DNA from: an uncultured delta proteobacterium | GTDB taxonomy: Bacteria; Myxococcota_A; Polyangia; Fen-1088 | Length of the DNA: 64,000 nt | Assembly: GCA_963796685.1 (NCBI GenBank) | Contig: CAWCMR010000025.1 | Span: 160,001-224,000 of the forward strand | Reading direction: 5' to 3' | Part shown: in pieces, positions 11,745 through 51,508 of the stretch | Position numbering within the stretch: position 1 is the stretch's first letter | How the letters are laid out: each line of letters starts with the position of its first letter | Translations under genes and position numbers: made by a program | Notes under the pieces: model-generated | Told to the model about the DNA's origin: nothing | Databases searched by the model: none | The model's input: the letters and a program-made list of their open reading frames with translations, nothing else

Positions 11745-11749
11745 GAGAC

Positions 11750-15736: not shown

Positions 15737-17829
15737 AGAAGCCCGAGGGCGGCGCAATCGCCTCACGCTTGTCCTGATGCTCTCCGTGAAATTCTCAGTC
15801 TGGTGGCCCATCGGCACTACCGGCAGTTCTCGCAATTGATGCTGGACGTTCTCACCGATTGCGACACCAACAAGTCGTATCGGTTGATCTTCCCTACATC
15901 GAGATACTCTTCGCACTTGCCACAGACAAGGTACCAGGAGACTACCCATAGCTCTACGGGCCGACAAAAGGCAGTCTCCGGTGATTTGTCAGTAGTAGCC
16001 GGAGGCGTTCAAGTAGACATCGTCAATCCACGTGTCGGCGAGCGAACCCTGCTGCTGGCAGTTGACCATTATGCTGCCGGTGCCACTTGGCGCCGCAAAG
16101 GAGGGAGTGATGCTAGGGCTCGCCCAAGTGGTGGAGGCGGGACCACTCTTGTATTGCATCAAATCGAGGGCGTCTCCCCCGCAACCGCTCCCCGCGTAGG
16201 CGAATACAGTGCACATAACGGCATCGGCGTCGGAGGAAGACAACTCCTTGAAACGATATCCGAAGTGATACCCGCCGGCCCCTGCGCTGACACACTGAGT
16301 GAGCTGGCCGAAAAAGAACCCGTAGTAACTGAGGCGAAGTGAGCCCGAGGTTGGGCAAGAGTCGGCGTCGTTTCCACTGACCCAGTTCTCGAGCGGCGAG
16401 GGACAGACAGAACTGGGACAGCCGTCACCGGACGTCCAACCCGACAAGGACGTTGCGAAACCCGGGTTGGCGAGGAGATTGCCCGAGCTCGGTTGACCGC
16501 ACTGGCAGGTGTGGCTCGAGGTGCAAGTCGCACTAGGCCCGTACGAGGCGGTGCAATCGCTAGGAGATGTGCACGGGACACACGCGTTGTTGTAGCACCT
16601 TGGATTGGGGCTCGAACAATTGCCGTCGCCCGCGCATTGGACGCAGGTAGTGCCTGAACAGACCGGCTTGGAGGGCGACGTGCAGTCGCTGCTCGCTAGG
16701 CACCCGACGCAGGTGTTGCTGCTGGTATTGCACACGGGCGTAGTGCCTGAACAGTTGCTGTTCCCAGCGCATTGGACGCATGCATTGTTGGAGCACACGG
16801 GTTTGGAACCTGAACATCCGCCGCTCGCGGTGCATTGGACGCATGTGTTCGTGGTGGTGTTGCATTTCGGCGTGGAGCCCGAGCAGGTGGTGTCGTCGGT
16901 GCACTGGACGCATGTGTTGGCGGTGGTATTGCATCTCGACGTGGAGCCCGAACATTGGCTATCCCCGGTGCATTGGACGCACGTGGTGCCGCCAGAGCAG
17001 TGCTTGCTGGTGGTCGTACAGTTGTTGGAGCAGTTTCCACAGTGGGCGTCTGTGTTCAAGGCCACGCAAGTGCTTCCCCCGCAGGTATCCTGGCCAGCGG
17101 GACAGCCGGTCGCGCACGTCGTGGTATCCGCGCAGGCGTACGGGGCACAAGTCCGGCTGGCCGGCGCTGGTGTCCCGCAGTGACCAGCGCCATCGCACAT
17201 CCGAGGGTAGGTCTGAGTGCCGCTCGAACAGTTTCCCGCCACGCACTGCGCCACTGGATAGTTGCAAGCTTGCCGGTGCGCGGCGGTTCCGTCGCAAGTT
17301 CCCCCACACATGGCATAACTGGCGTCGGTCGTGCACGCCGTGCGCGGGGTGGTCGTCGGGGAACAGGTACCCTTGGCCGAGGCGGTGTTGCAGGCTTCGC
17401 ACTGCCCGGTGCAGGTGGCGTCGCAGCAAACGCCGTCAGCGCAGATGCCGCTTGCGCATGCTGCCGCAGCGGCGGCAGTGCAACTGGTGCCGTTGGGGTT
17501 CCCGACGCACGTACCGTTGTTGCACGCTGGCGTATTTCCACTGCAGCCTCCACAGCACTCCGTGGAGGCGATGCAAGTGCCGTTGCAAAGTTTTTGCGAA
17601 CCGTTGCAGCTCACCGACGTCCCGCCGCTTCCAGTCCCGCCGCTTCCGATCCCGCCGCTCCCGGTCCCGCCGCTTCCGATCCCGCCGCTCCCGGTCACCC
17701 CGCCCGAGCCGGGAGTCCCGCCGGTCACGATGATTCCACCCGAACCGATGGTTCCAGCAAGCCCTGTCATACCGCCCGAGCCGTTGATTCCGCCGCCGCC
17801 CCCGCCACTTGCCCCACCTAGGGGCGAAT

Positions 17830-19285
17830 CATAGGTAGGTACTTAAGCGGTGGCGGAATGGCGTAATCCCATCGCAAGGCGCCCCATTCCCTGATCGCGT
17901 TTGGGATGCGCACGAGGTGCGTTTTCCGCGAGGAAAGTGAAGGCAGAACGGATATGCGACAGGAGCTGCGCGGCAGATTCGAGGATGGATAGCAGGATCG
18001 CGTCGAGGAAATGCTTGGCAGAGCAGGCTGCGCGCTGGGTGGACAGTGGAATACCGCATGCGTGTTCTGCGGCGTGGGTGAGCGCTCGTTTGATGGTCGC
18101 GGCAAGCAGGCTTGCCCAGATCAGGCCCTCGGCGATGGGTGACTTGGCCGTGTCGAATTTGTGGAGATTTGCGTAGGACTTCCATTCCTTGAAGAGGAGC
18201 TCAATCTGCCATCTGAGTCTGTAGACTCTGCCTACTTCGTGAGCGGTGAAGGTCGCTCTCGACAGATTCGTGTGCAGATAGGTGTAGCCCTTCTTGTTGC
18301 GTTTTCCTTCGATGTAGATGGCAACGAGACGACCACAGTAGGTCCTGCGGGCGTTGATCTTCCACTCGATTTCTAGGTCGACCGTATGACGAGGCAGTAC
18401 ACGCCACTTGAGTCGCTTGCCCTCGAGACGAGGGATACGCCTGCCATTCTTGTCGCGAGCACTTCGGATGATTGGTCGGCTGTTCTTTTTGCCGCGAACG
18501 ATGAAGAATCCTCCGGCGTCGAGAGTGTCTGCAAAGACAACGCGATCCTCGAATCCACGGTCCTCGAGGACCAGGCGATTTTTGAGAGACGCCGCTTTGG
18601 GGGCGAATGGGCGTTCGCTTTCCTTGTCAGGGGCCAGCGTAATGGCGACGGGATTGTCCCTCAAGACGCTCATGGTTACGTGGAGCTCCACTGCCGCTGG
18701 GGTCACCTTCGTGAAGCGGCCGGGCCACTTTCTGGCCAGAGTGTCTTTGAGCGCAAACGAGGTGCCGTCATGGCACAGGATCTCCGAGAACTGAGCCAGC
18801 TTGCCCTTGGGCAAACTCTCAAGCACAGGTGCCGTCAGCTTCGCGAGCGCCTGTTCGAGAATGGCGTGCATGAAGATGGGGAATCGCCGTTTGCTCAGTT
18901 GGTTGTGGAAAGGCTTGTAGCGAACAGCCTTGCCGGTGAACGCGTTGAAGGCGCGCAGGATGTCCGCGAGCCACGCAGCCGTGCCTGCCCCCAATGCCGA
19001 GATGCAGGCTATAAGAAGCGCGGCCGGGGCGATTTCACGGCGCCGTCGAAGAAAGCCACACCGGCGAGCCACCTTCTCCACCTCGGCATCGCTGAGAACC
19101 TGCTGTAGCTTTTGGCTGAGTGTCTCCGCCTCGATTGTGGCAATGTCTCTCTTGGGCACAGGGAACCTCCTCGCGTTTGTCTTCGCAAACGAATGTGTAG
19201 GAGGATTCCTGTGTCTTCTGCAACTACCTTGAACATCCGTTCAGTAAGTGATCGATTTCATTGAGGAATTAAGATCCTACCTATG
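17830..19285 (-). mobile_element. Complete IS4-family insertion sequence (1456 bp)
   Basis: 17-bp imperfect TIRs CATAGGTAGGtaCTTAA (17830-17846) and CATAGGTAGGatCTTAA (19269-19285, reverse complement). 10-bp TSD AGGGGCGAAT at 17820-17829 and 19286-19295. Confidence 0.92.
17843..19159 (-). CDS. IS4-family DDE transposase
   Basis: HDGT, EDRGF and YRLRWQIELLFKEWKS (YREK signature). Confidence 0.92.
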   Translation of the reverse strand: MPKRDIATIEAETLSQKLQQVLSDAEVEKVARRCGFLRRRREIAPAALLIACISALGAGTAAWLADILRAFNAFTGKAVRYKPFHNQLSKRRFPIFMHAILEQALAKLTAPVLESLPKGKLAQFSEILCHDGTSFALKDTLARKWPGRFTKVTPAAVELHVTMSVLRDNPVAITLAPDKESERPFAPKAASLKNRLVLEDRGFEDRVVFADTLDAGGFFIVRGKKNSRPIIRSARDKNGRRIPRLEGKRLKWRVLPRHTVDLEIEWKINARRTYCGRLVAIYIEGKRNKKGYTYLHTNLSRATFTAHEVGRVYRLRWQIELLFKEWKSYANLHKFDTAKSPIAEGLIWASLLAATIKRALTHAAEHACGIPLSTQRAACSAKHFLDAILLSILESAAQLLSHIRSAFTFLAENAPRAHPKRDQGMGRLAMGLRHSATA

Positions 19286-19700
19286 AGGGGCGAATCGAGC
19301 GCGCCGTCGAGGACGCCTCCGGCCCCCCCCGAGCCGGCGACGCCCCCTCCGCCTGCTGCTCCCACTTCCGACGGCCCGGTTGTGCCGCCACCGCCAGTGC
19401 CTGTCTCTCGGTAAGGCGCGTCCGTCGGTGCGTCGCCTGATGAACCGTCAATCTGCGCACCCGCGCCTCCGGTTGACACCGGATTGCTGCACGTCTTCCC
19501 ATCGGAAGATGCACAGCAATATCTGTTCGAGCCACAGACGTATCCCTCCGGGCAGTTCTTTTCCGTCTGGCATTTGCGAGGTTGGGTGACATCGATCTTC
19601 GGATCTTTGAAGCATCCGAGAACGGACCCAGCCAGGAACAGCGCCAGAGCAAGACTCTCGCGGGCACGCCGTACGGACAGAGGAGAGGACGACGAACGCA

Positions 19701-20513
19701 TTAGAAAGCTCCTGTAAGTAGGGCCCCTGCCGTGCCAGGAGCGATAGTCGGTACCAGCGCGACACTGGTCTGCGCTGGGCTGTGACCGGCGTGCCAGCCG
19801 AGGAAGTAGAGCAGCGAGCCACCGGCCAGGCAGGCGGCGCCCACTCCGTAGCTGATCCACCCCAGTGTCTTGTAGCTCTCGCGCGAAGAATTGGTGTCGC
19901 GGTTGAAGTTGTCGGGCTTCTCGAGATCCGTCGCCATGCTGTTGGCCTTGAGATTCAAGGCCACCCCGGTGCCCAAGGCCACCACGCCCAACGATCCTAC
20001 GACGATGCCCGCGATGCGCAGGCGGGAGCCGGCGTTCTCGTCGGGCTGCTGCGCCGCTGTCGCAACGACGACTGCCGGCGGCTCAGGGGTAACCTCGGCC
20101 GGCGGCGGCGTTGGAACGATCGGGACGGCCGAGACCGGTTCCGGCACCAGGGGCGAACGCGGCTCGGTCTTGGGCAGATAGGACTCGCAGGTCTCGATGT
20201 GCTTCTTGGCGGCGGCCTTGTCGTCGTCCGACAGGTGATCCTCACCTTTCGTCAGGTACTCACGAAAACGCCCGACGGCGTCTTCATAACGACGGTTCTG
20301 CTCGAAGCATCGTCCCTGGTTGAAGATATAGGTGATGTCGTTGGTATCCACGTAGAGCTCGGCGAGAATGCGCACGCCCTTCTCCGGCTCTCCCGAGAGA
20401 CACGCCTTTTTGGCAGCGCGCTCGTTGGCTCGTTTGCTGTTCGCCGCGAGAGCCTGCTGGGAGAGCGAGCAGAGGCTCGCCAATGTCACGAAGGCTATTG
20501 TAAGGTTTCGCAT
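19701..20513 (-). CDS. Secreted TPR-like protein with C-terminal hydrophobic hairpin (module 1 partner)
   Basis: Signal peptide, YIFNQGRCFEQNRRYEDAVGRFREYL, Pro-rich linker, two Gly-rich hydrophobic segments, terminal beta-like segment ending in Phe. Confidence 0.75.
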   Translation of the reverse strand: MRNLTIAFVTLASLCSLSQQALAANSKRANERAAKKACLSGEPEKGVRILAELYVDTNDITYIFNQGRCFEQNRRYEDAVGRFREYLTKGEDHLSDDDKAAAKKHIETCESYLPKTEPRSPLVPEPVSAVPIVPTPPPAEVTPEPPAVVVATAAQQPDENAGSRLRIAGIVVGSLGVVALGTGVALNLKANSMATDLEKPDNFNRDTNSSRESYKTLGWISYGVGAACLAGGSLLYFLGWHAGHSPAQTSVALVPTIAPGTAGALLTGAF

Positions 20514-20745
20514 CTCTCATCTCTTTCCAAGCACGGGTGCCACTCTTCGGCAACTGGCCCATCTTGACACATTGAACCGCGAGCAATATACGCGAAAGAA
20601 TAGAGCACCGCTACCACGAGATGCTGCCTGATGCTGTCTGACCGTGTCCTGGGCAAATCGAACCTCGTTCTTGAATCTCGTGGCCCGTTTTTCGAGCCCG
20701 CTGCTACTGAAGGGGGGTGAGTTTTTGCCCGAATGGAGGTGCCTC

Positions 20746-21996
20746 ATGAAATCTACGCATCGCTTGAATACATTCATCGCCGCGCTTGTGATTCTGAGCG
20801 GCGCCTGCTCGTCGAACACCTCGGGGACCATCGCGCAATCGGGCGGGTCCTCTGGCTCGGGATCAGGTGGCACGTCCGCCGCGGGAGGCGCCTCCAGTAA
20901 CGGTGGGGTAGCCGGCTCGGGCGGCGTAACCGGCTCGGGCGGCGTAACCGGCTCGGGCGGCGCGAGCACCGCCAGCGCTACCGGGGGCCACGCCGGCTCG
21001 GGCGGCGCGAGCGCCACCGGGGGCCACGCCGGCTCGGGCGGAACAAGCCTCACGGGAGGCACGACAGGCTCGAGCGGCCAAACGGGCTCGGGAGGGACAA
21101 GTGTCACCGGTGGCACGACCGGGCGGGACGCTGGACGAGACGTCCCGACGGGCAGTGGTGGAGCAGGTACGGGCGGTGTGCCCGGCGTGGGGGGCTCGGG
21201 CGGCATGGCCATCGACGGTGGTACAACCCCGGCAGGTGGCCCTGGCGGCGCATCCGCGGGTTGCGGCTCGGCGAATACCACCTCACCTTGTGGCGTCAAG
21301 GGAACCACGTGCAGCCTCGATGTCAGCGGCACGAGCCGGACGTACTACGTGCAACTGCCTTCGGGCTATAGCTCGTCCAAGCAGTATCCGCTCATCTTCC
21401 AGTTCCACCCTTGGGGTGGCTCGGCCGACCAGGCCCTGACCCTGTACCAGCTCAACTCGAAGATACCGGACGCGATCTACGTGACACCGCAGGGGCTGGA
21501 CGCCGGCTCCAACGGCCCGGGATGGGCAAACACCAACGGCCAAGACATCGCCTTCACCAAGGCCATGCTCGCCGATGTCCAGGGGAAATACTGCGTGGAC
21601 AACGCCCGCATCTTCTCCGTGGGTTTCAGCTATGGCGGTATGATGTCGTTCGCGATCGGCTGCGAGATGAGCGATGTGTTCCGCGCCATTGCGCCGATGT
21701 CGGGATCGCTCTACAGCGACTTCAACTGCAAGGGCACGGGGCCCCACATTGCCATGTGGGGATCGCATGGCACGAGCGATACCGTGGTCCCCATTGCCGA
21801 CGGCCGCGCGGCGCGCGACAAGATTCTGCAGCAGAACCACTGCGGTACCACGACGACGCCCGTGGATCCGAGCCCCTGCGTGAAGTACCAGGGCTGCGAC
21901 CCAGGCTACGACGTGACCTGGTGCGAATGGGACGGCCCTCACGGCATCCCCAGCTTCGGCAGCAGCGCGATCGCGGCGTTCCTCAAGCAGTTCTAG
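20746..21996 (+). CDS. Lipoprotein, CE1-like feruloyl-esterase family
   Basis: RBS GGAGGT, lipobox SGAC, RTYYVQLP, CVDNARIF, GFSYGG, HGTSD, DGPH. Confidence 0.8.
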   Translation: MKSTHRLNTFIAALVILSGACSSNTSGTIAQSGGSSGSGSGGTSAAGGASSNGGVAGSGGVTGSGGVTGSGGASTASATGGHAGSGGASATGGHAGSGGTSLTGGTTGSSGQTGSGGTSVTGGTTGRDAGRDVPTGSGGAGTGGVPGVGGSGGMAIDGGTTPAGGPGGASAGCGSANTTSPCGVKGTTCSLDVSGTSRTYYVQLPSGYSSSKQYPLIFQFHPWGGSADQALTLYQLNSKIPDAIYVTPQGLDAGSNGPGWANTNGQDIAFTKAMLADVQGKYCVDNARIFSVGFSYGGMMSFAIGCEMSDVFRAIAPMSGSLYSDFNCKGTGPHIAMWGSHGTSDTVVPIADGRAARDKILQQNHCGTTTTPVDPSPCVKYQGCDPGYDVTWCEWDGPHGIPSFGSSAIAAFLKQF

Positions 21997-22036
21997 CTAT
22001 TACTGAATGAGCCAGCGTCCAAGGAGGCGTCTATCG

Positions 22037-23536: not shown

Positions 23537-23555
23537 CGCACGCCTAGCCCCACGA

Positions 23556-25160: not shown

Positions 25161-25213
25161 GGTGAAATGCCTCCAAACGATGCGCGGAGATTGTCCGCAG
25201 GAACAGAGCGATG

Positions 25214-25912
25214 CTATTTGGGCTGGCCGTAGTAGGCGCCCGGGCCGTGCTTGCGCTCGTAGTGTTTGCGCACCACGTGCTCCGGTAGTGGATCGACGTT
25301 CGGGTTCAGCTGATAGGCGAGTAGGGCCATGCGCGCGACCTCCTCGAGGGCGGCCGCGTGGTGCACGGCCGCCATGGCGCTCTTGCCCCAGGTGAAGGGC
25401 CCGTGGCCGGCGACGATGACCATGGGAACCTCAAGAGGCTTTCTGCCCTTGAAGGTCTCGACGATGAGCTCGCCCGTGCCCAGCTCGTAATCCTTCTCCA
25501 GGGCCCGGGCGCCGATCATTTCGGTGCAGGGAATTTCGCCGGCGGTCTGGTCGGCGTGGGTCGTGCCCAGGCAGGGGATGGCACGCCTCGCCTGGGCCCA
25601 GGCCACCGCGTAGGGCGAATGGCTGTGGCACACGCCGCGTATGCCCGCGAAGGAGCGATACAGGACGAGGTGGGTCTTGGTGTCGGACGATGGCCGCAGG
25701 GATCCCTCGACGACCTTGCCATCGAGATCGACGACCACCATGGTCTCGGGCGTCAGCTCGGAGTACGCGAGGCCCGAGGGTTTGATGGCGAAGACGCCCG
25801 CCGCCGGATCGAACGCCGAGGCGTTACCCCAGGTGAGGATGGCCAGCTTGAGCTCGGCCACCTCGCGGTTCGCCGCGCATGCTTCCTCGCGAAGGGCGTC
25901 GTGCTTGCTCAT
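25214..25912 (-). CDS. araD: L-ribulose-5-phosphate 4-epimerase
   Basis: TWGNAS, IKPSG, PSSDTKTH, HSHS, GTTHAD, HYERKHGPGAYYGQ. Confidence 0.95.
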   Translation of the reverse strand: MSKHDALREEACAANREVAELKLAILTWGNASAFDPAAGVFAIKPSGLAYSELTPETMVVVDLDGKVVEGSLRPSSDTKTHLVLYRSFAGIRGVCHSHSPYAVAWAQARRAIPCLGTTHADQTAGEIPCTEMIGARALEKDYELGTGELIVETFKGRKPLEVPMVIVAGHGPFTWGKSAMAAVHHAAALEEVARMALLAYQLNPNVDPLPEHVVRKHYERKHGPGAYYGQPK

Positions 25913-25918
25913 GACCGC

Positions 25919-27403
25919 TCACAGTCCGAGTCTGTACCCGATCTCGTTCCAGCGGATCTCCTTGCGCAGCTCGTTGGGATCCGTCTTGGCGTCGATGAGA
26001 AGAAACTCGATGCCGGCCATCTCGGCCCAATCGCGCATCCACTCGGTCTTGACGACGCGCGAGTAGGCGGTGTGGTGAGCGCCGCCGGCGATGATCCAGC
26101 ACTCCGCGGCGCGCTCGAGGTCGGGCCTGGGCTTGAGCAGCACGCGTGCCACGGGAAGCTTGGGCATGGCCTTGGGCTCGATGGCGTCGACCTCGTTGAC
26201 AATCAGACGCATGCGGCCGCCCATATCGACCAGCGTGGCGTTGAGGGCGGGGCCTGCGTCGCCCGCGAAGACGAGCCGCGCGGGATCGTCCTTGCCACCG
26301 ATGCCGAGGGGATGGACCTCGAGCCTCGGCTTGCCCTTGGCGATGGAGGGACAGATCTCGAGCATGTGCGAGCCCAGGACCGCGGGGGCGGCCGGGTCGA
26401 AGTTGTAGGTGTAATCTTCGAGGAAGGATGCCCCACCGAGGCCGGTGGCCATCACCTTCAGGGCCCGCACCATGGCTGAGGTCTTCCAGTCGCCCTCGGC
26501 ACCGAAACCGTAGCCGGCAGCCATCATGCGCTGCGAGGCGAGGCCCGGTAGCTGGGACAGGCCGTGCAGATCTTCGAAGGTGTCCGTGTAGGCGCCGAAT
26601 CTTCCGGCTTCGAGGAAGGACTTGAGCCCGAGCTCGATGCGGGCCTGCACCCTGACTCTCTCGAGACCCGCGCCCGCCTTGGCGTCGGCCGCCATCTCGT
26701 ACTCGTCTGCATAGAGCTTGACGAGCTTATCCACCTCGGCATCGGAGACCTCTTTCACGACCTTGACGAGGTCGCCCACGCCGTAGCCGTTGATGGACCA
26801 ACCCAGCTTGATCTGGGCCTCGACCTTGTCGCCCTCGGTGACCGCCACCTCGCGCATGTTGTCGCCGAAGCGGGCGACCTTGAGGCTGCGCCCGTCGGCA
26901 AAGGCAGCCGCCGTGCGCATCCAGCCCGCGAGCTTGTCGAGGACGGCCGCCGTCTCCCAGTGCCCGACCACAACCTTGCGCGGCAGGCGCAGGCGCGCGC
27001 CGATGAAGCCGTGCTCCCGATCGCCGTGGGCCGACTGGTTGAGGTTCATGAAGTCCATGTCGATGGAATCCCAGGGGATGTCGCGGTTGAACTGGGTGTG
27101 CAGGTGGCACAGCGGCTTGTGCAGCTCGGTGAGGCCGGCGATCCACATCTTCGAGGGGCTGAAGGTGTGCATCCACGTGATGATGCCCGCGCAATTCGGA
27201 TTGGCGTTGGCCTCGCGGACCAGGGCGAGGATGGCGTCCGGTCCCTTGACCACGGGTTTCCAGATGAGCTTGCAGGGCATCTTGGGTTCGAGGGCCTGGA
27301 CCATGGCCTTCGAGTGCTCGTCGACTTTCTTGAGAGTCTCGGCGCCATAGAGATCCTGGCTGCCGGTCACGAAATAGAGCTCGAACCTCTTGAGGTCGAT
27401 CAT
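25919..27403 (-). CDS. araA: L-arabinose isomerase
   Basis: GSQDLYG, WMHTFSPSKMW, MNLNQSAHGDRE, FGAEGDWK, EDYTY, HMLE, GGAHH. Confidence 0.96.
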   Translation of the reverse strand: MIDLKRFELYFVTGSQDLYGAETLKKVDEHSKAMVQALEPKMPCKLIWKPVVKGPDAILALVREANANPNCAGIITWMHTFSPSKMWIAGLTELHKPLCHLHTQFNRDIPWDSIDMDFMNLNQSAHGDREHGFIGARLRLPRKVVVGHWETAAVLDKLAGWMRTAAAFADGRSLKVARFGDNMREVAVTEGDKVEAQIKLGWSINGYGVGDLVKVVKEVSDAEVDKLVKLYADEYEMAADAKAGAGLERVRVQARIELGLKSFLEAGRFGAYTDTFEDLHGLSQLPGLASQRMMAAGYGFGAEGDWKTSAMVRALKVMATGLGGASFLEDYTYNFDPAAPAVLGSHMLEICPSIAKGKPRLEVHPLGIGGKDDPARLVFAGDAGPALNATLVDMGGRMRLIVNEVDAIEPKAMPKLPVARVLLKPRPDLERAAECWIIAGGAHHTAYSRVVKTEWMRDWAEMAGIEFLLIDAKTDPNELRKEIRWNEIGYRLGL

Positions 27404-29058
27404 GTGCGCATCTCCTTTTCGGCAAAGACCCCGAGGGCCTTGTATTTCGAGTAGATCTTGTCGTAGGCCGCGCGACGCGCCGGATCGGGCCGGTAGATGT
27501 GCTCGATGGGAGCACGCATCGCCGCTTGGGCCGCGAGGGCGTCGGGATAGAGACCGGCCGCCGTAGCGGCGAACATGGCGCCGCCGAGCGCGACGGACTG
27601 GTCGTTGGCCGAGACCGAGATGTCCATGCCGAGGACGTCGGAACAGATCTGCATCACGAGGGGGCTCTTGCGGGCGACGCCGCCGATGGCGGCCACGCGC
27701 TCGACCTGCACGCCTTCCGAGCGCAGCCGCTCCACGATGGCACGCGACCCGAAGGCGGCCGACTCGATGAGCGCACGGTAGACCGCGGGTGCGTCGGTGC
27801 CGAGGCTGATCCCGGCCAGCGCGCCGGTGAGGGCCTGGTCGGCGTCGGGGGTACGGCGACCGTTGTGCCAGTCGAGGGCCACCAGGCCCGACGCGCTCGG
27901 ATCGATCTTGGCGGCCTCGGCCTCGAGGGCGGGGAGGAGCTTGTCCTCGATGGCCTGCGGGTCGCCGAGCCCCGGCAGGGCGCGGGCCGGCCAGGCGAGG
28001 ATTTTGCGGAACCAGGCGAAGACGTCGCCGAAGGCCGATTGTCCTGCCTCGTAGCCGATCATGCCCTTCACGACCGAGCCGTCGACCTGGCCGCAGATCC
28101 CGCGCACGAGCTTCTCCGCGCCCGCGGGCCTAGGGCCGATCATGATGTCGCAGGTGCTGGTGCCCATGATCTTGAGCAGCGTGCCGGGTGCCACGTCGCC
28201 GCCCACCGCGCCGATGTGCGCGTCGAAGGCGCCGACCGAGACGACGACCTCGGTCGGAAGGCCGAGGCGCTTGCCCCATTCCGGGCTGAGCTTGCCGAAG
28301 ACGGTCTCGGCCGTGTAGGTCTCCGTGCCCAGGGAAGCAGCAAGTTGCGAAAGCCGGGGATCGAGCTTGTCGAGGAAGGCAGCGGGGGGATAGCCGCCCC
28401 ACGAGGCGTGCCACATGGCCTTATGCCCGGCCGCACAGCGGCTGCGCTTGTATCGGGCCAGGGTGTTGGTCCCGGTGAGGAGGGCGGGCATCCAATCGCA
28501 GTGCTCCACCACCGTGCGGGCGGCGGCGATGGCCGGGGTCTTGTTCTCGACGAGCCTCAGCACCTTGGCCCAGAACCACTCGGAGGAATAGATGCCGCCC
28601 TCGTACTTGGTGAAGTCCTCGCCGCCCCAGCCGCGGGCCAGCTCGTTGATGCGCTCGGCCTGGGCAACAGCAGTGTGGTCCTTCCACAGGACGAACATCG
28701 CGTCGGGCTCCGAGCCGAGCTCGGGCTTGAGTGCGAGCGGCGCACCGGTCTCGTCGGCGAGGCAGGGAGTGGAGCCGGTCGTGTCGATCGTGATACCCCG
28801 CACCTTGGTGGCGACCGCAGGGCCCGCCTCGGCGAGAGCGCGCTTGGTGGCGTCCTCGATTCCCTCGACGTAGTCGAGAGGGTGCTGGCGAAAGCGATTG
28901 GACCGGGGGTCGCAGAACTCCCCCTTGGCCCAGCGCTTGTACACGCTCACCGCCGTGCCGGCGCTCGCCCCATCGGCCGCGTCCACGACCAGGGCCCGCA
29001 CCGAGTCGGTGCCGAAATCGATGCCGACGACGAAATCTTGTCCCTTCTTGACGCTCAC
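27400..29058 (-). CDS. araB: Ribulokinase
   Basis: GIDFGTDSVRA, DTTGST, WKDHTA, YSSEWFWAK, CAAGHKA, EAGQSAFGD, LDWHNGRRTP. Confidence 0.95.
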   Translation of the reverse strand: MSVKKGQDFVVGIDFGTDSVRALVVDAADGASAGTAVSVYKRWAKGEFCDPRSNRFRQHPLDYVEGIEDATKRALAEAGPAVATKVRGITIDTTGSTPCLADETGAPLALKPELGSEPDAMFVLWKDHTAVAQAERINELARGWGGEDFTKYEGGIYSSEWFWAKVLRLVENKTPAIAAARTVVEHCDWMPALLTGTNTLARYKRSRCAAGHKAMWHASWGGYPPAAFLDKLDPRLSQLAASLGTETYTAETVFGKLSPEWGKRLGLPTEVVVSVGAFDAHIGAVGGDVAPGTLLKIMGTSTCDIMIGPRPAGAEKLVRGICGQVDGSVVKGMIGYEAGQSAFGDVFAWFRKILAWPARALPGLGDPQAIEDKLLPALEAEAAKIDPSASGLVALDWHNGRRTPDADQALTGALAGISLGTDAPAVYRALIESAAFGSRAIVERLRSEGVQVERVAAIGGVARKSPLVMQICSDVLGMDISVSANDQSVALGGAMFAATAAGLYPDALAAQAAMRAPIEHIYRPDPARRAAYDKIYSKYKALGVFAEKEMRT

Positions 29059-30144
29059 TCGCTCTCCTCGTCTGGGATGTTTTCCTTGAAATACACTTCA
29101 AGGGGGATTGACGCGGGCGACGCGTCCAACTGCGCGCGAACGACCGCCTTGAAAAGCCTCTCGAGCCCCTCGCGCGCCTGCTCGGCGGGTCGCTGGGAAA
29201 CGACGCAATCGATCTTGCCCTCGCGGAGGGCCCGCGCGTTGGCCGGCACCAAGTCCCAAGAGACGACGGCGCAACTTTCCTTGGCGCCTCGCGCGGCCAG
29301 CCATTCGCCCGCGACGTGGCCCGAGGAATTGGCGACCAGGATCCCCGCGATATCGGGATTGGAGCGAAAGCTCTTTCCCAGGGCGCGCTCGCAGTCCTCG
29401 GCGTCTTCGAGCTTCCGGACATTCCTTCACGATGACCGTGCGCGATTCGGTCCCAGGGACTACGTCGCGGAAGAACGTCTCGAAGCCCTCGATGCGCAGC
29501 CTGATGTGCCGATCCCCGGCGTGGGCGCTCACCGCGACGAGAGGGCCCGGTCTCTTCGCGAGCAGGGACATCATGCGTCCGGCGAGGTAGCCTGCGCGAC
29601 GTGCGTCTTGACCGATGGCTGCCACGGGGCTCGCCCCCTCGGCGTCGCAATCGAAGAACACGTAGGGCACGAGGCCGCCCGCGCGACCTGGCGGGGAGGC
29701 GGCGTTCAGCTTCTTCAAGACTGGCACGAGATCGTCCGGCAGCACCGGGGCGATGAGAAGACCGTCGCGGGGCTCGGCAACGACGTCCCTGAGCAGGGCG
29801 CGGTACCCGGCACGGTCGTAGCGATCGAATTCGTCCACCCGGAGGCTCGTCCCGTAAGGTGCAAGGTCACGTTCGGCGCGATGAATGCCCGCGAGGCAGA
29901 GGGACCAGTACCCCGAGTCCTGGTCGGCGCGGGGAAGGATTGCGCGCAGGGTATAGACCCTGTTGCGAGCAAGCTGTCGGGCCAGGATATTGGGCTCGTA
30001 GCCCAGGGCGGCCACGATCGTGAGGATCTTGGCTTTGGTATCGGCCGAGACTTCGCCTCTGTCGTGCAGCACCCGATCGACGGTGCCGATGGAAACGCCC
30101 GCGAGACGGGCTATTTCTTTGACGGTCGCGCGTGTGTTTTCCAT
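29055..30144 (-). CDS. LacI-family regulator (probable arabinose repressor), frameshift near 29413
   Basis: TVKEIARLAGVSIGTVDRVLH HTH. Removing one base (GAAGCTC to GAGCTC on the minus strand) joins it to the WDLVPAN...SQRP C-terminus, which overlaps the araB start. Confidence 0.85.
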
Positions 30145-30147
30145 GGT

Positions 30148-30199
30148 CCGTGTACGTACACGGTCAGCTTTTTGTACCATCGCGGGGATCCTCCGTCAA
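30148..30199 (-). promoter_or_regulatory. Sigma70-like promoter plus palindromic operator for the regulator-araBAD operon
   Basis: TTGACG-17bp-TACAAA on the minus strand; operator CCGTGTACGTACACGG at 30148-30163. Confidence 0.75.
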
Positions 30200-30293
30200 C
30201 CCCAAAGACTTCTCCCATCACGGAACCCCATTCGAGTTCGGAGGCCTGGAATCCACCGCGCCGGGTGTCCCCCCGACGTAGGGCCAATTTTGG

Positions 30294-35073: not shown

Positions 35074-35101
35074 GACGGAATTCGCTCGCTCATCCCACTA
35101 C
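35074..35101 (+). promoter_or_regulatory. Bipartite motif copy 4
   Basis: GACGGAATT-cgctcgctcatc-CCACTAC upstream of GH54. Confidence 0.6.
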
Positions 35102-37311: not shown

Positions 37312-37454
37312 GGCCCCATCGAGTTGCAAAAAACTCTAATGCCGAACCGTGGTTCGCTGGTCATCCATGACCCACATCAAGCAGTAGGACCTGGCGAAAT
37401 CGCCTGAAGTCCGGTCGCGCGACCACGGCAAGGTGGTAGCCTTCGGGAAGGACG

Positions 37455-39362: not shown

Positions 39363-39504
39363 GCCCGAATCATTTCCGGATTCCAACCACAAGGACACAA
39401 GACGTGTCCATAAATGGACCACCTTTCCCTGACGGCCGCGCCCTTTCGGTGTCCGAGGTCGCCGTGGTAGGGTCTCGTGGGCTAGCCTTCGGGGGCCTCC
39501 GACC

Positions 39505-41217: not shown

Positions 41218-41238
41218 AGGTATTCGCTCGGATAACAA

Positions 41239-43194: not shown

Positions 43195-43218
43195 GGGTGC
43201 AAGTCCTTGGAGTACGTC

Positions 43219-45786: not shown

Positions 45787-45916
45787 GTATGTCTCCTCGT
45801 TTGTGCTGCCAGGGGCCGACCCCATGCAATCGGGTCTGCCGATTCTATCGAATGGGGTGACGCCGCGTCCATGAGGCGAGGGTACAATCCGTCCAGGGTA
45901 GAATCCATTGTGCTTG

Positions 45917-45944
45917 GCAGTGGCGGGACCACCTGAATTCCGTC
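45917..45944 (-). promoter_or_regulatory. Bipartite motif copy 5
   Basis: Minus strand GACGGAATT-caggtggtcccg-CCACTGC upstream of the GH39-GH30 operon. Confidence 0.6.
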
Positions 45945-46112
45945 TGGCTTCTTGCTCCCTCCACCGTCGCAAACCTGAAGCGGCCCGGCATCTGGGTGCA
46001 GGTGCCACCCCAGCTCCCGTAGGAGCGCGCCGGCATTGACCAAAGGGGACCCGTGGCTTCCTGTCTGGAAACTAGTGCAGAGGGTGCCGTGCTCCAGTAA
46101 GGTAACCGGCAT

Positions 46113-48179
46113 TTGCCACCGGCAAGCTTCCGGAACGTGCTCGGCTTCCTCGCGTTTCGACCGAAGATGGACACCACCTATAACGCGTCTGACCTGGCCG
46201 CCGTGTCCCTCACGGCAGCGGTCGTCGCCGTCTGGGCGGAGGCTGCGGGAGGCTCGTTTTCGTTTCTCGCGCTCGTCGCCTGCGAGGCGGCTTTTCTCGC
46301 GTTCTACCTGGTGGGCTCCCTCTTCGCCGGCTGGCGAGCTTTGGCAGCGGGCGTCCTCTTCGATCTTCCGCTGCGCTTGCTCATGGGCTACGCCGCCGTC
46401 AATACTGCGCTGCTCGTGCTGGCCTGGCTCTCTCCGCTCGGCATCATCGCCAACTTCGGCATCTTGCTCGCGGTCGCGGTCTCCCTGTTCGTCGCCGCAA
46501 GACCGGTCAGGCGGCCGAACCAAGACCATCCAGTCGGGCTGTTGGTCCTCGCCTTGTCCTTGGCCGCTGCCACGCTGTGGTGCCAAGACTCGCTCCGCCC
46601 CACATCGGTGGCAGGCGACGTGGTCGTGTTCAAGCCATGGATCGACGGCTTCTATCACGCGGTTCACATTCGAATCTTCGGCGCCAGCCACGGGGCGTCC
46701 TCCATCGAGGACTTCCGGTTGGCGGGCATGCCTGCCCGCATCTACCACTATGGGGCCTATCTGACGCCGGCCCTTATCAAGCAGGCGTCGGGAATCCATT
46801 CGTACGCCGCCTTCGCCGGGATTTTGGCCCCCATGGGGGTCTTCTTCACCGGGCTCGCGGCCTACGCCCTCGTCGGCTCCTTCTGGGGCCCCTGGCCGGG
46901 GCTTGCCGCATGCGCGGCGCTGCTGCTCTTGCCCGATGGCGCCCAGCAGGGGATGCGGAACACGTTCATGTCGTATCACTGGCTCACCCAGATCTCGCCC
47001 AGCGCAAGCTACGGCCTCGGCCTGCTGGCTGTCGCCTGGCTCTTCGTCCTGCGCGGGTGCACGCAGGGCAATCGCTTGCAGCTCCTCGCGGGCTGGCTGC
47101 TGGCAGGAATTCTCGCCTTCTACAAGCTGCACTTCTTCATCGCGAGCGCGCTCCTGCTCTGGCTCGTGCCTCCGCTGTTCTTCCGTTCCGACCTTCGCCC
47201 GCTCGGGCTTGCCAAGCGGGCCCTGTGGGCACTCTCTGCCGTCGCGGTCTATGTCGTGACCCTCGTCGCCGTACAGAGGGTGCCCGGCGTTCCCATCATC
47301 CGTTTCGACGGATCGAGCGTGGGCGAGATCCTCAAGCTGGTCAAGACTTTCACGCAGCCGGGGCCCTTGCGCAACTTCCTTGCCGATCGCATCGGGAGGG
47401 AAAGCCCCTTGCTTTCGAACCTCCTCTTCGGGGTTCCCTTCATTCTGCTGGCAGCTCTCGGGCTCTTCGCGCCGTTGCTGGTGGTTCTGTCCATCCGCAT
47501 GCGTAAGCGCACTCCTCTCGTGCTCGTGCTCTTCCCGCTCCTGCTCGTGGCCAATTTCCTGGCGATGTTCTTCGGGCTGGCGCTCGACTTCAGGAGCAGC
47601 ACGCCCGACGAGCTGTCGCACCGCCCGGTCATGGTGATGTACTTTGTTGTCGTGGCGTGGGTCGGCGGGGCGGCTGGCCTGTCGTTGCTCGAGTCGCGGC
47701 GCCTTGGGCGTTTTGCCCGACCGGCGATGCTCGGCTTGGCCATCCTGCTCATGGCCGTCCCGGCGTTCCTCGGATCGGGTGTCCAAAGGATGTGGGCCAT
47801 GCGCATGTTCTGTCCCGTCCGAGTCCCCATCGGCCTCTATCGGGCAGCCGAATACATGCGCGACCACGGTGATGCGCAAGACATCTTCCAGGATGCTCAG
47901 TTCGATCGGACCAGCACCTTGGCCGCCCTATCGGAGCGAAGGGCGTACGCCGCACACACGATGACGATCATGCCCTACCACCGAGAACGCGTGGAAGAGC
48001 GAGAGGAGGCCATCGAGAAGCTCATGCAACTTCGCGACCCCGTTGCGGTTGCCGCCACCGCTCACCGGCTCGGTCTTCGTTGGTTTCTGCTCGAACCTAG
48101 CGACAAGGTCGAATGGTCAGAAGAGATTGCCAGGTGGATGGTATTCGAGCTGCGTGGATACAGGCTCTATCGATTCTGA
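46113..48179 (+). CDS. Large multi-TM membrane protein, possible GT-C fold
   Basis: About 16 hydrophobic segments; loop DGFYH...AG...YHY; soluble C-terminus. Start may be ATG 46167. Confidence 0.55.
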   Translation: MPPASFRNVLGFLAFRPKMDTTYNASDLAAVSLTAAVVAVWAEAAGGSFSFLALVACEAAFLAFYLVGSLFAGWRALAAGVLFDLPLRLLMGYAAVNTALLVLAWLSPLGIIANFGILLAVAVSLFVAARPVRRPNQDHPVGLLVLALSLAAATLWCQDSLRPTSVAGDVVVFKPWIDGFYHAVHIRIFGASHGASSIEDFRLAGMPARIYHYGAYLTPALIKQASGIHSYAAFAGILAPMGVFFTGLAAYALVGSFWGPWPGLAACAALLLLPDGAQQGMRNTFMSYHWLTQISPSASYGLGLLAVAWLFVLRGCTQGNRLQLLAGWLLAGILAFYKLHFFIASALLLWLVPPLFFRSDLRPLGLAKRALWALSAVAVYVVTLVAVQRVPGVPIIRFDGSSVGEILKLVKTFTQPGPLRNFLADRIGRESPLLSNLLFGVPFILLAALGLFAPLLVVLSIRMRKRTPLVLVLFPLLLVANFLAMFFGLALDFRSSTPDELSHRPVMVMYFVVVAWVGGAAGLSLLESRRLGRFARPAMLGLAILLMAVPAFLGSGVQRMWAMRMFCPVRVPIGLYRAAEYMRDHGDAQDIFQDAQFDRTSTLAALSERRAYAAHTMTIMPYHRERVEEREEAIEKLMQLRDPVAVAATAHRLGLRWFLLEPSDKVEWSEEIARWMVFELRGYRLYRF

Positions 48180-48410
48180 GGCGTCGTTACGCGGGGCCGA
48201 GCGTATGTTCCGGCAAAGGCGAGAGCAAACGCCACCCTGGCGAGCCACCTGACACCACGACGCTCCCCTTGTGCTGGTATGGCCCTTGGTTCTCGCCCAA
48301 TGAGGCTTCTAGCTGTGGCGCTTCGGTGATCGCCTTTTGCATGGCCCGACCTGGGATGTCAACCAGGAATTCCTTGCAAACCTTTGTCCATGCAGCCAAC
48401 ATATGCTGCC

Positions 48411-49274
48411 ATGAGCCAGTCTACTGGATATCCGGGCAGTCGGTGCCTCATAACGTGCAGCACCTTGATACCTCTCACTCTCTTGACGCTTACAGCCACG
48501 CCCGCACTTGGCGACGGCAAGCACGCCCAGGAGCGCGCCGCCCGAAAGGCATGTCTTGGCGGCGACTACATCAAAGGCGTCAACATTCTGGCGGATCTCT
48601 TCGTCGATACGAAGGACCCTACTTACATCTTCAACCAAGGTCGTTGCTTCGAACAAAATCATCGGTACGAGGACGCCGTCTCCCGGTTCGAGGAGTACTT
48701 GCGCATGCCCGAAGGGGAGCTGGATGCAACGGGACGATCCGCGGCTAAGAAGCACATCGCTGATTGCAAGAATCGGATTCTCCCCGACCAACCGAGCAGG
48801 TCCGAAGCGTCAGCGCCCCGGCCGTTTGTTCCGCCTCCTCCTATTCCCGCCGCGCCTCCAGAGACCACAAGTACATTGACTCCGTCGCCGTCTGCGATGA
48901 CACCAACGTCGTCCACATCGATCACCTCTCAACCCGAGCCCACCGTCAGCGGGTCGGGTCTGCGAGTCGCTGGCATCGTCACAGCATCCGTTGGCGTCGC
49001 TGCCGTGGTCACTGGGATTCTCCTCAACGTCAAGGTCAATGGCATGGTCGACAGCATGGACACAACCATCGGCAACTACGAAGCCAAGAATTCAGACCGC
49101 AAGACCTACGAAACCATAGCATGGATAGGCTACGGTGCGGGCGCAGCATGTCTAGTCACGGGCGCCATTTTGTACCGTTTCGGACTTAGCCGCGCACGCG
49201 CGGCCACCAGCCTTGCCCTCTTGCCCGCGGTTGGCCCTGACCGGGCGGGCGCTCTGTTGAGTGGAGAGTTCTGA
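48411..49274 (+). CDS. Secreted TPR-like protein with C-terminal hydrophobic hairpin (module 2 partner)
   Basis: Close paralogue of 19701..20513: ERAARKACL, YIFNQGRCFEQN.RYEDAV.RF.EYL, LRVAGIV, ends ALLSGEF. Start uncertain (48384-48411). Confidence 0.75.
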   Translation: MSQSTGYPGSRCLITCSTLIPLTLLTLTATPALGDGKHAQERAARKACLGGDYIKGVNILADLFVDTKDPTYIFNQGRCFEQNHRYEDAVSRFEEYLRMPEGELDATGRSAAKKHIADCKNRILPDQPSRSEASAPRPFVPPPPIPAAPPETTSTLTPSPSAMTPTSSTSITSQPEPTVSGSGLRVAGIVTASVGVAAVVTGILLNVKVNGMVDSMDTTIGNYEAKNSDRKTYETIAWIGYGAGAACLVTGAILYRFGLSRARAATSLALLPAVGPDRAGALLSGEF

Positions 49275-51508
49275 TGAATGCGACTACGACCTCGGTTGGG
49301 CAAATGCGTAGTCAATGTGCGACTGTCTGGGTGCCACTACTGCTCTGCCTGAGTGCACCCGCCTGCTTCCGATCCCCGGATACCTCGAAGATCCCATGTG
49401 TCGAAGCAGCCAACTGTCCAAACGGCTACCACTGTGCGAAACCCCAGGGAACGAACCAGGGAACTTGTGCCCCGGGGCCGGCATCCGCCGATGGGAGCAT
49501 CACCGACCTATCCACGTTGGCTGGGCTCGGCGGCAAAGGTGGGGGCTTGGCTGATGCCGCGCTCGGCATAGACACAAGCGACGCAAGGACTGCCAACGCT
49601 GACAGCATGTTGTTCGACGTAAGCCCAGGTGGGACAGGGGGCGTAGGCGGATCGGCCGGTTCCGCGGCATCGGGCGGTTCAACATCATCTGGAGGCACGA
49701 CCTCTGCCCCGGATGCTCCGAGCGGGGCCGGAGGCACGACCTCGCCCCCGGATGCCCCCATAACAAATGACGTATCCGACGCCCCGACGACTCTGCCAAA
49801 CGGTTCAGCCTGCATGGTTCATGACCAGTGCAGCAGTGGTTTTTGTGTCGATGGTCATTGCTGCAATAGCAATTGCGACGGGAATTGCGCGTCCTGCGCA
49901 ACCGGAACCTGCAGCTTCACCTCGACACCCCGAACGCCTTGCGCTGGCTCCGGCAAGTGCGCCGGCATTTGCGACAAGTCGAACACGAAAGCTTGCACCT
50001 TCGACAACACAACGGTCTGTGCTGCTCAGAGCTGCTCGAGTGGTGTGCGCACGAACAAGTCGATATGCGATGGCCAGGGCAACTGTCCAGCTCCGACCAC
50101 GACCACCTGCAACGGCAACCAGTGCGCGGCCGACGGCAATGACTGCGCCACCTGCACCGACGAGCCCACGGCAACGACCTGCGCCGGCGGCCACTGCGGC
50201 CCGACCGCCAACAATTGCGGCCATACGGTACAGTGCTCGACGACGTGCACGGGCAATTACCAAACATGTGGAGGCGGTGGCGTGACTGGCATGTGCGGCT
50301 GCACCTCCGTCAGCACAAGCCAGACGTGCGGAACATCCAACTGCGGCACGCCAACCGACAATTGCGGGAAACAGGTCAGTTGCGGAACCTGCTCCGGTTC
50401 GAACACATGCGGTGGTGGCGGAACGGCCAATGTTTGCGGGTGCACGACCAACAGCAATGGATGCGTCGGACGCGCCTGTGGAAGCGCGTCTGATGGATGC
50501 ACCGGCACGATTACGTGTGGCTCCTACAGTGGCGGCTGTCAGACTGGGTACCAATGCAATACCACCACAGGCCAATGCTCGTGTGTGCCGAATAACAATG
50601 CGTGCGTCGGTCGCGCCTGCGGCACCGCATCCGACGGATGCACCGGTACGATTGCGTGTGGCTCCTACAATGGTGGTTGTCAGACTGGGTACCAGTGCAA
50701 CACCACCACAGGCCAATGCTCGTGCGTGCCGAATAACAATGCGTGCACCGGTCGCCAATGTGGTACCGCATCCGACGGATGCACCGGTACGATTGCGTGT
50801 GGCTCCTACAATGGTGGTTGTCAGACTGGGTACCAGTGCAACACCACCACAGGCCAATGCTCATGTGTGCCGAATCCCTCTCCGTGTGGCACTCGTGTCT
50901 GCGGCTCGGTGTCCAACGGGTGCGGCGGCACCACTTCATGCGGCACCTGTGCGACGGGGCAATCCTGCGACGGAAATGGAAAGTGTCAATGCAATTCGGG
51001 TGCTACGTCCGTCTGCGGCGGTTGCCTTAGCTGGGGCTTCGAATCGGGCACTCAAGGTTGGGGGATTGACACCAGCATGTACGGCGTCAATCCTGGCGCA
51101 ATTATCTTGGGCAGAGTGAGCCAGAGCGCGAGTCAACACCACTCTGGTAGTTACTCCCTGTCATTTTACACTCAGTTCGATGGCCAAGTCACTATCGATG
51201 CCACAGTGGCAGTGAATGTATGCGCCGCGGCCACGAACGTGTATGGACTCCAGGTTTCTGGATACGTCATGGCCGTACCTGACACAGGCTACTCCACGCT
51301 TCCCAACAACATACTGTCGGTATACTCTGACGCCATGGCACCTGTGATTCAGCTCGGCATTCACAGTGTCAACACCTGGATCCCGTTCGTGGGGACTTTT
51401 ACTCTGTCCCCGGGATCTTTGACTTTCTTGGGTTTGGACTTCAAGGTAACCGGTGCCGCATGGAACGGAACGCTCTATGTTGATGACGTAACGATTGCTG
51501 CTCCGTAA
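49274..51508 (+). CDS. Cys-rich repeat lipoprotein with C-terminal CBM-like domain
   Basis: TGATG overlap with the upstream gene, lipobox APAC, Cys repeats, C-terminus WGFESG..GW...LYVDDV. Confidence 0.8.
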   Translation: MNATTTSVGQMRSQCATVWVPLLLCLSAPACFRSPDTSKIPCVEAANCPNGYHCAKPQGTNQGTCAPGPASADGSITDLSTLAGLGGKGGGLADAALGIDTSDARTANADSMLFDVSPGGTGGVGGSAGSAASGGSTSSGGTTSAPDAPSGAGGTTSPPDAPITNDVSDAPTTLPNGSACMVHDQCSSGFCVDGHCCNSNCDGNCASCATGTCSFTSTPRTPCAGSGKCAGICDKSNTKACTFDNTTVCAAQSCSSGVRTNKSICDGQGNCPAPTTTTCNGNQCAADGNDCATCTDEPTATTCAGGHCGPTANNCGHTVQCSTTCTGNYQTCGGGGVTGMCGCTSVSTSQTCGTSNCGTPTDNCGKQVSCGTCSGSNTCGGGGTANVCGCTTNSNGCVGRACGSASDGCTGTITCGSYSGGCQTGYQCNTTTGQCSCVPNNNACVGRACGTASDGCTGTIACGSYNGGCQTGYQCNTTTGQCSCVPNNNACTGRQCGTASDGCTGTIACGSYNGGCQTGYQCNTTTGQCSCVPNPSPCGTRVCGSVSNGCGGTTSCGTCATGQSCDGNGKCQCNSGATSVCGGCLSWGFESGTQGWGIDTSMYGVNPGAIILGRVSQSASQHHSGSYSLSFYTQFDGQVTIDATVAVNVCAAATNVYGLQVSGYVMAVPDTGYSTLPNNILSVYSDAMAPVIQLGIHSVNTWIPFVGTFTLSPGSLTFLGLDFKVTGAAWNGTLYVDDVTIAAP
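50441..50875 (+). repeat. 141-bp tandem repeat x3 plus partial (47-aa Cys-rich unit)
   Basis: Units start at 50441, 50582, 50723 and 50864; unit CVPNNNACVGRACGTASDGCTGTIACGSYNGGCQTGYQCNTTTGQCS. Confidence 0.9.

Follow-up and report, generated by a model that had tools for sequence, protein, structure and literature searches.

A 64,000-nucleotide stretch of an uncultured delta proteobacterium (Genome Taxonomy Database lineage Myxococcota_A, Polyangia, Fen-1088; GenBank assembly GCA_963796685.1, contig CAWCMR010000025.1, forward-strand positions 160,001 to 224,000; hereafter the window, to which coordinates refer unless a locus is named) carries two copies of a two-gene module. In each, a gene for a tetratricopeptide repeat (TPR) protein with a hydrophobic helical hairpin (A) is followed, with overlapping stop and start codons, by a gene for a predicted Cys-rich lipoprotein (B). 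Across related genomes, A and B are a dedicated, co-translated two-gene cassette of Polyangia-type myxobacteria, in which B is a cargo carrier with exchangeable heads.

Two copies of the module in the window

A sequence-only reading of this DNA had proposed two paralogous modules, at 20513-15989 on the reverse strand and at 48411-51508 on the forward strand, and the open reading frames (ORFs) were confirmed at both places, as were the junctions in which the start of B overlaps the stop of A by 1 nt (TAATG for A1/B1 and TGATG for A2/B2). Gene A1 (19701..20513, reverse strand; 270 aa), delimited by its ORF, alignment, an AlphaFold2 (AF2) model, TPR fold matches and hydrophobicity, encodes a signal peptide (residues 1-24), a TPR unit (residues 25-115, window 20169-20441), a Pro-rich linker (residues 116-162), a helical hydrophobic hairpin (residues 163-244, window 19782-20027) and a tail ending in GAF (residues 251-270, window 19704-19763). 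B1, on the same strand, is in two pieces: a 5' fragment (19286..19701) with a signal peptide, the lipobox Cys30, a disulfide knot (C44, C50-P51, C56 and C62) and the start of a Gly-rich linker, and a 3' fragment (15989..17819) with the rest of that linker, a Cys block shared with B2 (about 17003-17497), a stalk of tandem 23-aa Cys repeats (16828-16985) and a C-terminal tip (15992-16513). On the forward strand, gene A2 (48411..49274; 287 aa from ATG, with TTG at 48384 as an alternative start) has the same architecture as A1, and B2 (49274..51508; 744 aa) is intact, with the lipobox Cys31 and knot (49364-49471), a Gly/Ser/Thr-rich linker, the shared Cys block (49787-50263), a stalk of three 47-aa repeats (50455-50875) and a carbohydrate-binding module (CBM)-like tip (50966-51505).

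A1 and A2 are 47% identical over 255 aa (E 2e-69). The motif KACL...YIFNQGRCFEQN.RYEDA..RF.EYL, the Pro linker, the two Gly-rich hydrophobic segments and the terminal Phe, all pointed out earlier for gene A, recur in an alignment of 44 sequences. For gene B, the signature CF+.P....C....CP.GY.C directly past the lipobox Cys is present in both copies, and the common Cys block is 40% identical over 167 aa (E 2.7e-15). The stalks differ as had been described, with 3.0 copies of a 141-bp unit (90% identity) in B2 and 2.3 copies of a 69-bp unit in B1, and so do the tips, which both end in DDV and whose C-terminal ~175 residues share no significant similarity (best local E 0.013). The view of module 1 as a two-gene unit held for the pairing of A1 with B1, whereas the splitting of B1 by an IS4-family insertion sequence (IS) had gone unnoticed. 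The window contains no further copy of A or B besides these two modules, and promoter and terminator scans around both gave nothing beyond what shuffled sequences gave.

Pairing of A and B across homologous loci

Of 7678 candidates in a search with A1, 931 proteins reached E ≤ 0.001, and their annotations are without exception 'hypothetical' or generic TPR. An exhaustive search with A2 against 50%-identity clusters returned 2451 at E ≤ 0.001, of which 798 reach 1e-10 and 175 reach 1e-30. Scanning one genome per species with two peptide patterns gave at least 79 loci from at least 30 assemblies (counted from the locus table; both counts are lower bounds), with up to 9-10 loci per assembly, and all 79 came from metagenome-assembled genomes (MAGs) titled Myxococcales, Polyangia or 'delta proteobacterium'. 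The pairing counts use the 65 loci with an intact 3' end of A, the 14 left out being those at contig ends (L017, L059), with disrupted or aberrant 3' ends (L019, L047, L066), with A split by an IS (L064, L065), with a run of N (L078), or belonging to a sister family or shortened (L070-L075).

Stop and start codons overlap in 56 of the 65 loci (53 overlaps of 1 nt, three of 4 nt), and the knot pattern C..C..CP...C lies near the start of the next ORF in 55. Six loci (L045, L046, L050, L051, L055 and L056) have an overlapping lipoprotein gene with no knot after A, three (L007, L077 and L079) have no lipoprotein-type gene there, and L035 runs off its contig; a lipoprotein-type gene is directly downstream of A in 61 of 64 assessable loci, and the preferential neighbourhood expected from the window is real. 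As a control, the knot pattern was sought in 1566 other ORFs of at least 150 aa and found in 20. Eight of these are further B-like genes (six of them directly preceded by an A-like ORF, one lying at a locus edge and one next to an N run), and the other 12 are mostly antisense or small ORFs. Pairwise distances in the TPR unit of A and in the knot of B are correlated (r = 0.59, Mantel p 0.001; the control between two halves of A gave 0.77), which shows inheritance of the modules as units and does not in itself prove contact between the two proteins.

Clustering of 2215 ORFs from these loci gave no conserved third gene family-wide, the exceptions being a kinase and a protein of ~650 aa in a distant subfamily only. 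This subfamily, with a CFDPxFP knot and apparently single-copy (L041, L053, L058, L060-L063 and L067-L069), has a conserved four-gene arrangement of membrane Ser/Thr kinase, A, B and the ~650-aa protein. The last is a secreted protein with a C-terminal transmembrane helix and no Pfam match, found at eight of these ten loci and also at L057 and L076.

B is a cargo carrier with exchangeable heads

In 54 aligned N-termini of B, the lipobox Cys and the knot residues C44, C50-P51, C56 and C62 are invariant, position -1 of the lipobox is G, A or S in all 54, and a K/R-containing n-region followed by an uncharged run is seen in 48. These features mark B as a lipoprotein by predicted acylation. The residue at position +2 is F in 43 of the 54 and never K. 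In Myxococcus xanthus, 8 of 12 inner-membrane lipoproteins are described as having Lys at +2 (PMC3222651), and by that rule B would not be kept in the inner membrane.

The knot is followed by ~100 residues rich in Gly, Ser and Asp, then by the Cys block and stalk, and then by the head. The near-identity of the B2 stalk repeats suggests that this stalk has expanded recently and that its length may vary. A search with the B2 Cys block found 27 proteins, of which 17 have the strict knot and some carry a MYXO-CTERM end instead (29.3 bits for P0289 against a cut-off of 20, and 18.3 for P0290). TraA, among other proteins, is reported to reach the cell surface by way of its MYXO-CTERM (PMC11980579), and it is itself described as a lectin-like head on a Cys-rich stalk (PMC3325183). 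Given this shared block and the likeness to TraA, B looks like an N-terminally anchored counterpart of MYXO-CTERM-type surface proteins. The TraA family has a PA14 head, TIGR04201 repeats and MYXO-CTERM; its model NF033759 matches at repeat level only (19.1 bits against a cut-off of 750), and neither PA14 nor MYXO-CTERM was found by Pfam and NCBIfam in B1 or B2. Another Cys-rich protein of the window, a lipoprotein-like protein of 794 aa (6311-8692, forward strand), has five DUF4215 repeats (E 3.6e-41) and no A partner.

The earlier description of the tips as CBM-like jelly rolls was upheld for B2 at the level of fold, and for neither tip by a match to a family model: no Pfam family matched the tip of B1 or B2 even at E ≤ 10. 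An AF2 model of the B2 tip, built with a nine-sequence alignment of homologous tips, is all-beta (predicted local distance difference test, pLDDT, 60.9; predicted template-modelling score 0.64). Foldseek against the PDB gave 111 matches at E ≤ 0.001, the best of which (template-modelling scores of 0.45-0.64) are CBM22 (E 5e-6; scores 0.56-0.62), CBM4-2, CBM61 and CBM27, and language-model (Atlas) neighbours included CBM_4_9 clusters at 0.89-0.90, which we take as a lead only. The B2 tip is thus predicted to fold like a CBM4/22 jelly roll, with a model of only moderate quality.

Tips and heads change from one B to the next. In a phmmer search of 64 downstream proteins the B1 tip matched L002 only, and an iterated profile of the B2 tip found nine further similar tips (ten rows beside the two of the query; a single gene may account for both P0269 and the L065 fragment). 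Tips of the B2 type also occur on further proteins just 3' of B (L043, 9898-12276; L026, 8862-10508; L031, 9434-10222), and one sits on a knot-less lipoprotein, which indicates that the tip is a mobile module, independent of the knot. Of the 61 downstream proteins, nine are cut or short; a scan of the other 52 found Pfam heads in 17 and none in 35. The heads comprised Lcl_C (4), Kelch (2), alpha/beta-hydrolases (3) and GH30 (2), besides Sushi, Disintegrin, DUF1554, DUF3237, NHL, fn3_3 and Alpha-L-AF_C.

Architecture and membrane placement of A

Protein A consists of a signal peptide, a TPR unit, a Pro-rich linker, a hydrophobic helical hairpin and a tail, the last residue of which is Phe in 63 of 65 loci; the alignment shows two forms of the family, a short one that has a single TPR unit and a long one that has two copies of it. 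The AF2 model, computed from 44 sequences, has a TPR-like helical domain at residues 30-115 (pLDDT >90), a disordered Pro-rich linker at 119-154, two long helices at 163-197 and 205-244 (pLDDT 72-89) within the C-terminal ~110 aa, and a disordered tail. Foldseek matched it to generic three-repeat TPR domains only (~88 aligned residues, root-mean-square deviation ~3 Å). A search with the A profile of PDB sequences gave chance-level matches only (best E 0.045, apolipoprotein E), and an Atlas search with the C-terminal domain found only unnamed Myxococcota clusters of 143-153 aa. Across 73 sequences, conservation is highest in the TPR unit, where 18 columns reach 0.9, compared with six such columns in the second helix; in the hairpin loop the mean top-residue frequency is 0.45 and no column reaches 0.9.

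Median Kyte-Doolittle values are 2.09 for the first hydrophobic segment of A and 1.52 for the second, the former being typical of a stop-transfer helix of the inner membrane, and the loop between them holds five K/R residues while the tail holds none. A sister family (L071-L075) has an A-type TPR unit and Pro linker followed by a single classical transmembrane helix (WWFWTG...), and a short, Cys-containing tail takes the place of the hairpin. It also overlaps a downstream lipoprotein gene, here knot-less and with GH12, DUF5050, Peptidase_S9/Big_13 or FGE-sulfatase heads. A single-pass helix that follows a cleaved signal peptide anchors a protein in the inner membrane and, by analogy, the hairpin of A most likely also lies there with both of its ends in the periplasm.

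Family models add little to this picture. On A, B and the tips, Pfam and NCBIfam gave only weak TPR and repeat-level TraA matches beyond the IS transposase, and no Pfam match to DUF560, another beta-barrel or another membrane family was found among 44 members of A. Membership of A in the glycine-zipper families was considered and rejected: the alignment has no conserved Cys at the end of the signal peptide, so that A is not a lipoprotein, and no glycine-zipper family appears among the 25 listed of 49 Pfam families matched by the 44 members at E ≤ 1, nor among the Pfam matches of member 1.

Insertion sequences in the cassettes

The insertion in B1 is 1456 bp long and lies in the Gly-rich linker (17830..19285, reverse strand). 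It encodes a transposase of 438 aa (17843-19159, reverse strand; NCBIfam transpos_IS4_1 at 207.9 bits against a cut-off of 115, E 2.1e-61; Pfam DDE_Tnp_1, E 3e-21), and has terminal inverted repeats CATAGGTAGG matching at 10 of 10 positions and a 10-bp target-site duplication ATTCGCCCCT with copies at 19286-19295 and 17820-17829, one of which forms the final 10 bp of the B1 5' fragment. With its DDE transposase, inverted repeats and target duplication, it is a complete element of the IS4 family. When the IS and one repeat copy are removed, the two halves of B1 are in frame and read through for 748 aa with no stop (X at the junction). The reading frame is still open across the insertion, which suggests that it is recent.

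In a related MAG, the A genes L064 (6393-7495), the apparent counterpart of module 2 of the window, and L065 (6384-8971) are split in the Pro-rich linker by IS elements that encode a 402-aa transposase, with one full and one partial copy in L065. The low-complexity linkers of the cassettes seem to be repeated targets of IS elements.

Genomic context

Both cassettes lie within a region of hemicellulose and arabinan utilisation (window 1-15000 and 20600-58000). It includes genes of arabinose catabolism (L-arabinose isomerase, FGGY kinase and class II aldolase, 25217-29058), a LacI regulator (29101-30180), an SSF symporter, a LamB-type porin and an aldose epimerase, and its enzymes include three AbfB arabinofuranosidases, two GH39, GH30, GH2, and GDSL- and PHB-type esterases. 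One AbfB-type lipoprotein gene (54217-55444, reverse strand) is apparently frameshifted: signal peptide, linker and the beginning of the protein are in ORF 54587-55444, and ORF 54217-55041, which is in another frame, matches positions 82-312 of the ArabFuran-catal profile, so that the gene is either a pseudogene or affected by an assembly error.

A tentative model and its alternatives

We tentatively favor a reading, to which we give somewhat less than an even chance, in which A is a membrane-anchored periplasmic partner that sets the place of B, and B is a stalked, probably surface-exposed glycan binder. Under this model, B would carry a small epidermal growth factor-like disulfide knot directly past its lipidated Cys, then a long disordered Gly-rich tether, the Cys-rich stalk and an exchangeable head. 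A would be exported by its cleavable signal peptide, with the conserved TPR unit held in the periplasm on the Pro-rich spacer and the hairpin anchoring it in a membrane, most likely the inner one. A might then bind its own B at the N-terminus and thereby determine where B goes, holding it or passing it on so that its stalk and head face outward at the cell surface, where the head may bind plant polysaccharide for the hemicellulose- and arabinan-degrading enzymes encoded around both copies. What the data show are the coupling of the genes, the domain layouts, the lipoprotein signature, the tip fold and the swapping of heads; binding of B by A, the membrane of A, surface exposure of B and its glycan ligand are inferred.

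Several points weigh against this reading. Contact between A and B is a supposition, and co-folding of A (residues 25-270) with the B1 N-terminal peptide (30-80), both given as alignments, scored 0.01, which weighs neither way on binding. The knot is dispensable for pairing: six hairpin-type A proteins and the sister family have knot-less partners, and the highly conserved TPR surface may thus bind, in place of the knot, a common feature such as the acylated N-terminus or a machine of the host. The window also encodes at least ten lipoproteins with Gly-rich linkers (Gly/Ser/Thr-rich, ~100 aa or more) and hydrolase heads that have neither knot nor A, so that A is not generally needed for similar lipoproteins, and the IS disruption of one cassette in the window and of two A copies in the related MAG indicates that single cassettes are dispensable. 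Placement of A in the inner membrane draws only on hydrophobicity, charge bias and the analogy with the sister family. It leaves unexplained the Phe-ended tail, which resembles an outer-membrane beta-signal and which in distant homologues is amphipathic (..LRMSF, ..LRVRF). The +2 rule of M. xanthus may not be transferable to Polyangia. Lastly, a Ser/Thr kinase gene lies directly upstream of A in the distant single-copy subfamily, where signalling fits better.

This last point belongs to an alternative that we consider unlikely, though the strongest of those weighed, namely that the pair is a sensory module in which the head of B binds an extracellular or periplasmic ligand and A relays the signal across the membrane to a Ser/Thr kinase or regulator of polymer-degradation genes. 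Pairs of a lipoprotein and a membrane sensor exist, such as RcsF-IgaA and LpqB-MtrB. A membrane Ser/Thr kinase is encoded directly upstream on the same strand at all ten assessable of the 12 CFDPxFP loci (Pkinase E 1e-42 to 1e-46), with a periplasmic part that is only low-complexity, and both cassettes of the window stand among glycan-utilisation genes. However, no kinase gene adjoins the expanded cassettes, to which both of those in the window belong, and many heads of B are enzymes (GH30, esterases, GH12 and peptidase S9), which would be odd as sensors. Moreover, the hairpin loop, which would have to be the cytoplasmic part, is only moderately conserved, and A has no signalling domain.

The sequence-only reading had instead suggested that A may be an outer-membrane translocator or anchor, with Slam as the precedent, and its fuller version, in which Gly-rich hairpins and a C-terminal strand make A oligomeric in the outer membrane, as a Slam-like translocon or an anchor by which B is flipped to the surface, now appears distinctly improbable. 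The terminal Phe kept in nearly all A proteins and the strand-like amphipathic tails of distant homologues speak for it, as does the adjacency to lipoprotein genes, which for Slam is given as 185 of 353 (PMC5449769) against 61 of 64 for A. Helical hairpins of the outer membrane are also reported, in the glycine-zipper lipoproteins SlyB and YfgH (bioRxiv 10.64898/2025.12.22.696046), and TPR_Slam (PF24575) is weakly matched in 25 of 44 members at E ≤ 1 (best E 1.9e-4). Yet A1 scores 13.8 bits on that model against a cut-off of 35.2, and an unrelated TPR protein of the window (55759-57612) scores higher, at 25.8 bits, from which we take the matches of A to be generic. In place of a DUF560 or other beta-barrel, AF2 gives two long helices, of which the first is hydrophobic enough for a Sec stop-transfer helix; the sister family is anchored by one classical transmembrane helix; and, unlike SlyB and YfgH, A is neither a lipoprotein nor matched by a glycine-zipper family among the Pfam families listed. 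Having no beta-barrel, A is not a Slam. In a toxin-immunity reading, A would neutralise B or confer immunity to it, B being a polymorphic toxin or adhesin. This would suit the tight linkage, the highly variable tips and the modular lipoprotein toxins reported from myxobacteria (PMC8546572), but we reject it as hardly credible because a scan of 52 B proteins detected no toxin domain, and A lies upstream, is far better conserved than B and is kept across unrelated heads.

Comparison with known systems

In its working, the cassette comes closest to Slam plus surface lipoprotein or to TraA-TraB, and it lacks the defining features of both. As in Slam and the type XI secretion system (substrates TbpB, HpuA and fHbp), a TPR-bearing envelope protein is encoded beside the lipoprotein that it presumably serves, and the lipoproteins have exchangeable ligand-binding parts. 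However, Slam is defined in PMC5449769 by a 14-stranded DUF560 barrel and its substrates by an 8-stranded barrel, whereas A has a helical hairpin and B a knot, stalk and jelly-roll head; sequence kinship to A is found only at the generic TPR level, and Pfam detected no TbpB- or fHbp-type barrel family in B1, B2 or the 52 homologues. TraA-TraB and MYXO-CTERM proteins share with the cassette a lipid-anchored lectin-like head on a stalk of Cys-rich repeats (as described in PMC3325183 and PMC11980579), an envelope partner encoded alongside and, on MYXO-CTERM proteins, the Cys block of B. In contrast to TraA, the polarity of B is inverted, with a lipobox anchor at the N-terminus and the head at the C-terminus, and its partner is a TPR-hairpin protein in place of an OmpA-like one.

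More distant parallels exist. The SusE/F and surface glycan-binding proteins (SGBPs) of Bacteroidota are likewise lipoproteins with CBM-like beta-sandwiches encoded among glycoside hydrolases, and SGBP-B of Bacteroides thetaiotaomicron (7kwc) is at rank 43 of the Foldseek matches of the B2 tip. They belong to another phylum, and no SusC/D pair is present here; lipoprotein export in Bacteroidota uses a short N-terminal signal and is not known to depend on a partner gene. TonB- and TolA-type proteins of the inner membrane have an anchor, a long Pro-rich periplasmic spacer and a terminal binding domain, and by analogy the spacer of A could let its binding domain reach the outer membrane; unlike these, A has the reverse domain order, no ExbBD or TolQR nearby and no homology. 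SlyB and YfgH (glycine-zipper 2TM) have a Gly-rich two-helix hairpin like that of A, and differ in being lipoproteins with a Pfam glycine-zipper match, A having a signal-peptidase-I leader and no such family listed.

Implications

No Pfam or NCBIfam model describes the A-B pair, and no description of it was found in the literature searched, most subscription journals and bioRxiv supplements lying outside that coverage; in this respect, too, the initial impression of an undescribed pair was borne out. To our knowledge, the surface placement of lipoproteins in Gram-negative bacteria beyond Proteobacteria and Bacteroidota is largely unknown. The A family is large and nameless, and its coupling to a lipoprotein gene is stricter than that of Slam. 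On a modest reading, A is the marker of a class of lipoproteins that are stalked, bind glycans and are encoded in the polysaccharide-degrading loci of uncultured soil Polyangia.

A bolder possibility, which we regard as rather doubtful, is that the cassettes represent a new route of lipoprotein localisation or display that is specific to Myxococcota, in which each lipoprotein has its own non-barrel partner. If this is true, a TPR receptor of the inner membrane, set on a Pro-rich stalk, would recognise a lipidated N-terminal module and deliver or tether it for display at the surface, and the cassettes would form a plug-and-display system with ten or more copies per genome and heads that are freely swapped. 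If A does control the destination of B, it would represent a sorting partner of a new kind and might be used to display enzymes or lectins on the cells of myxobacteria.

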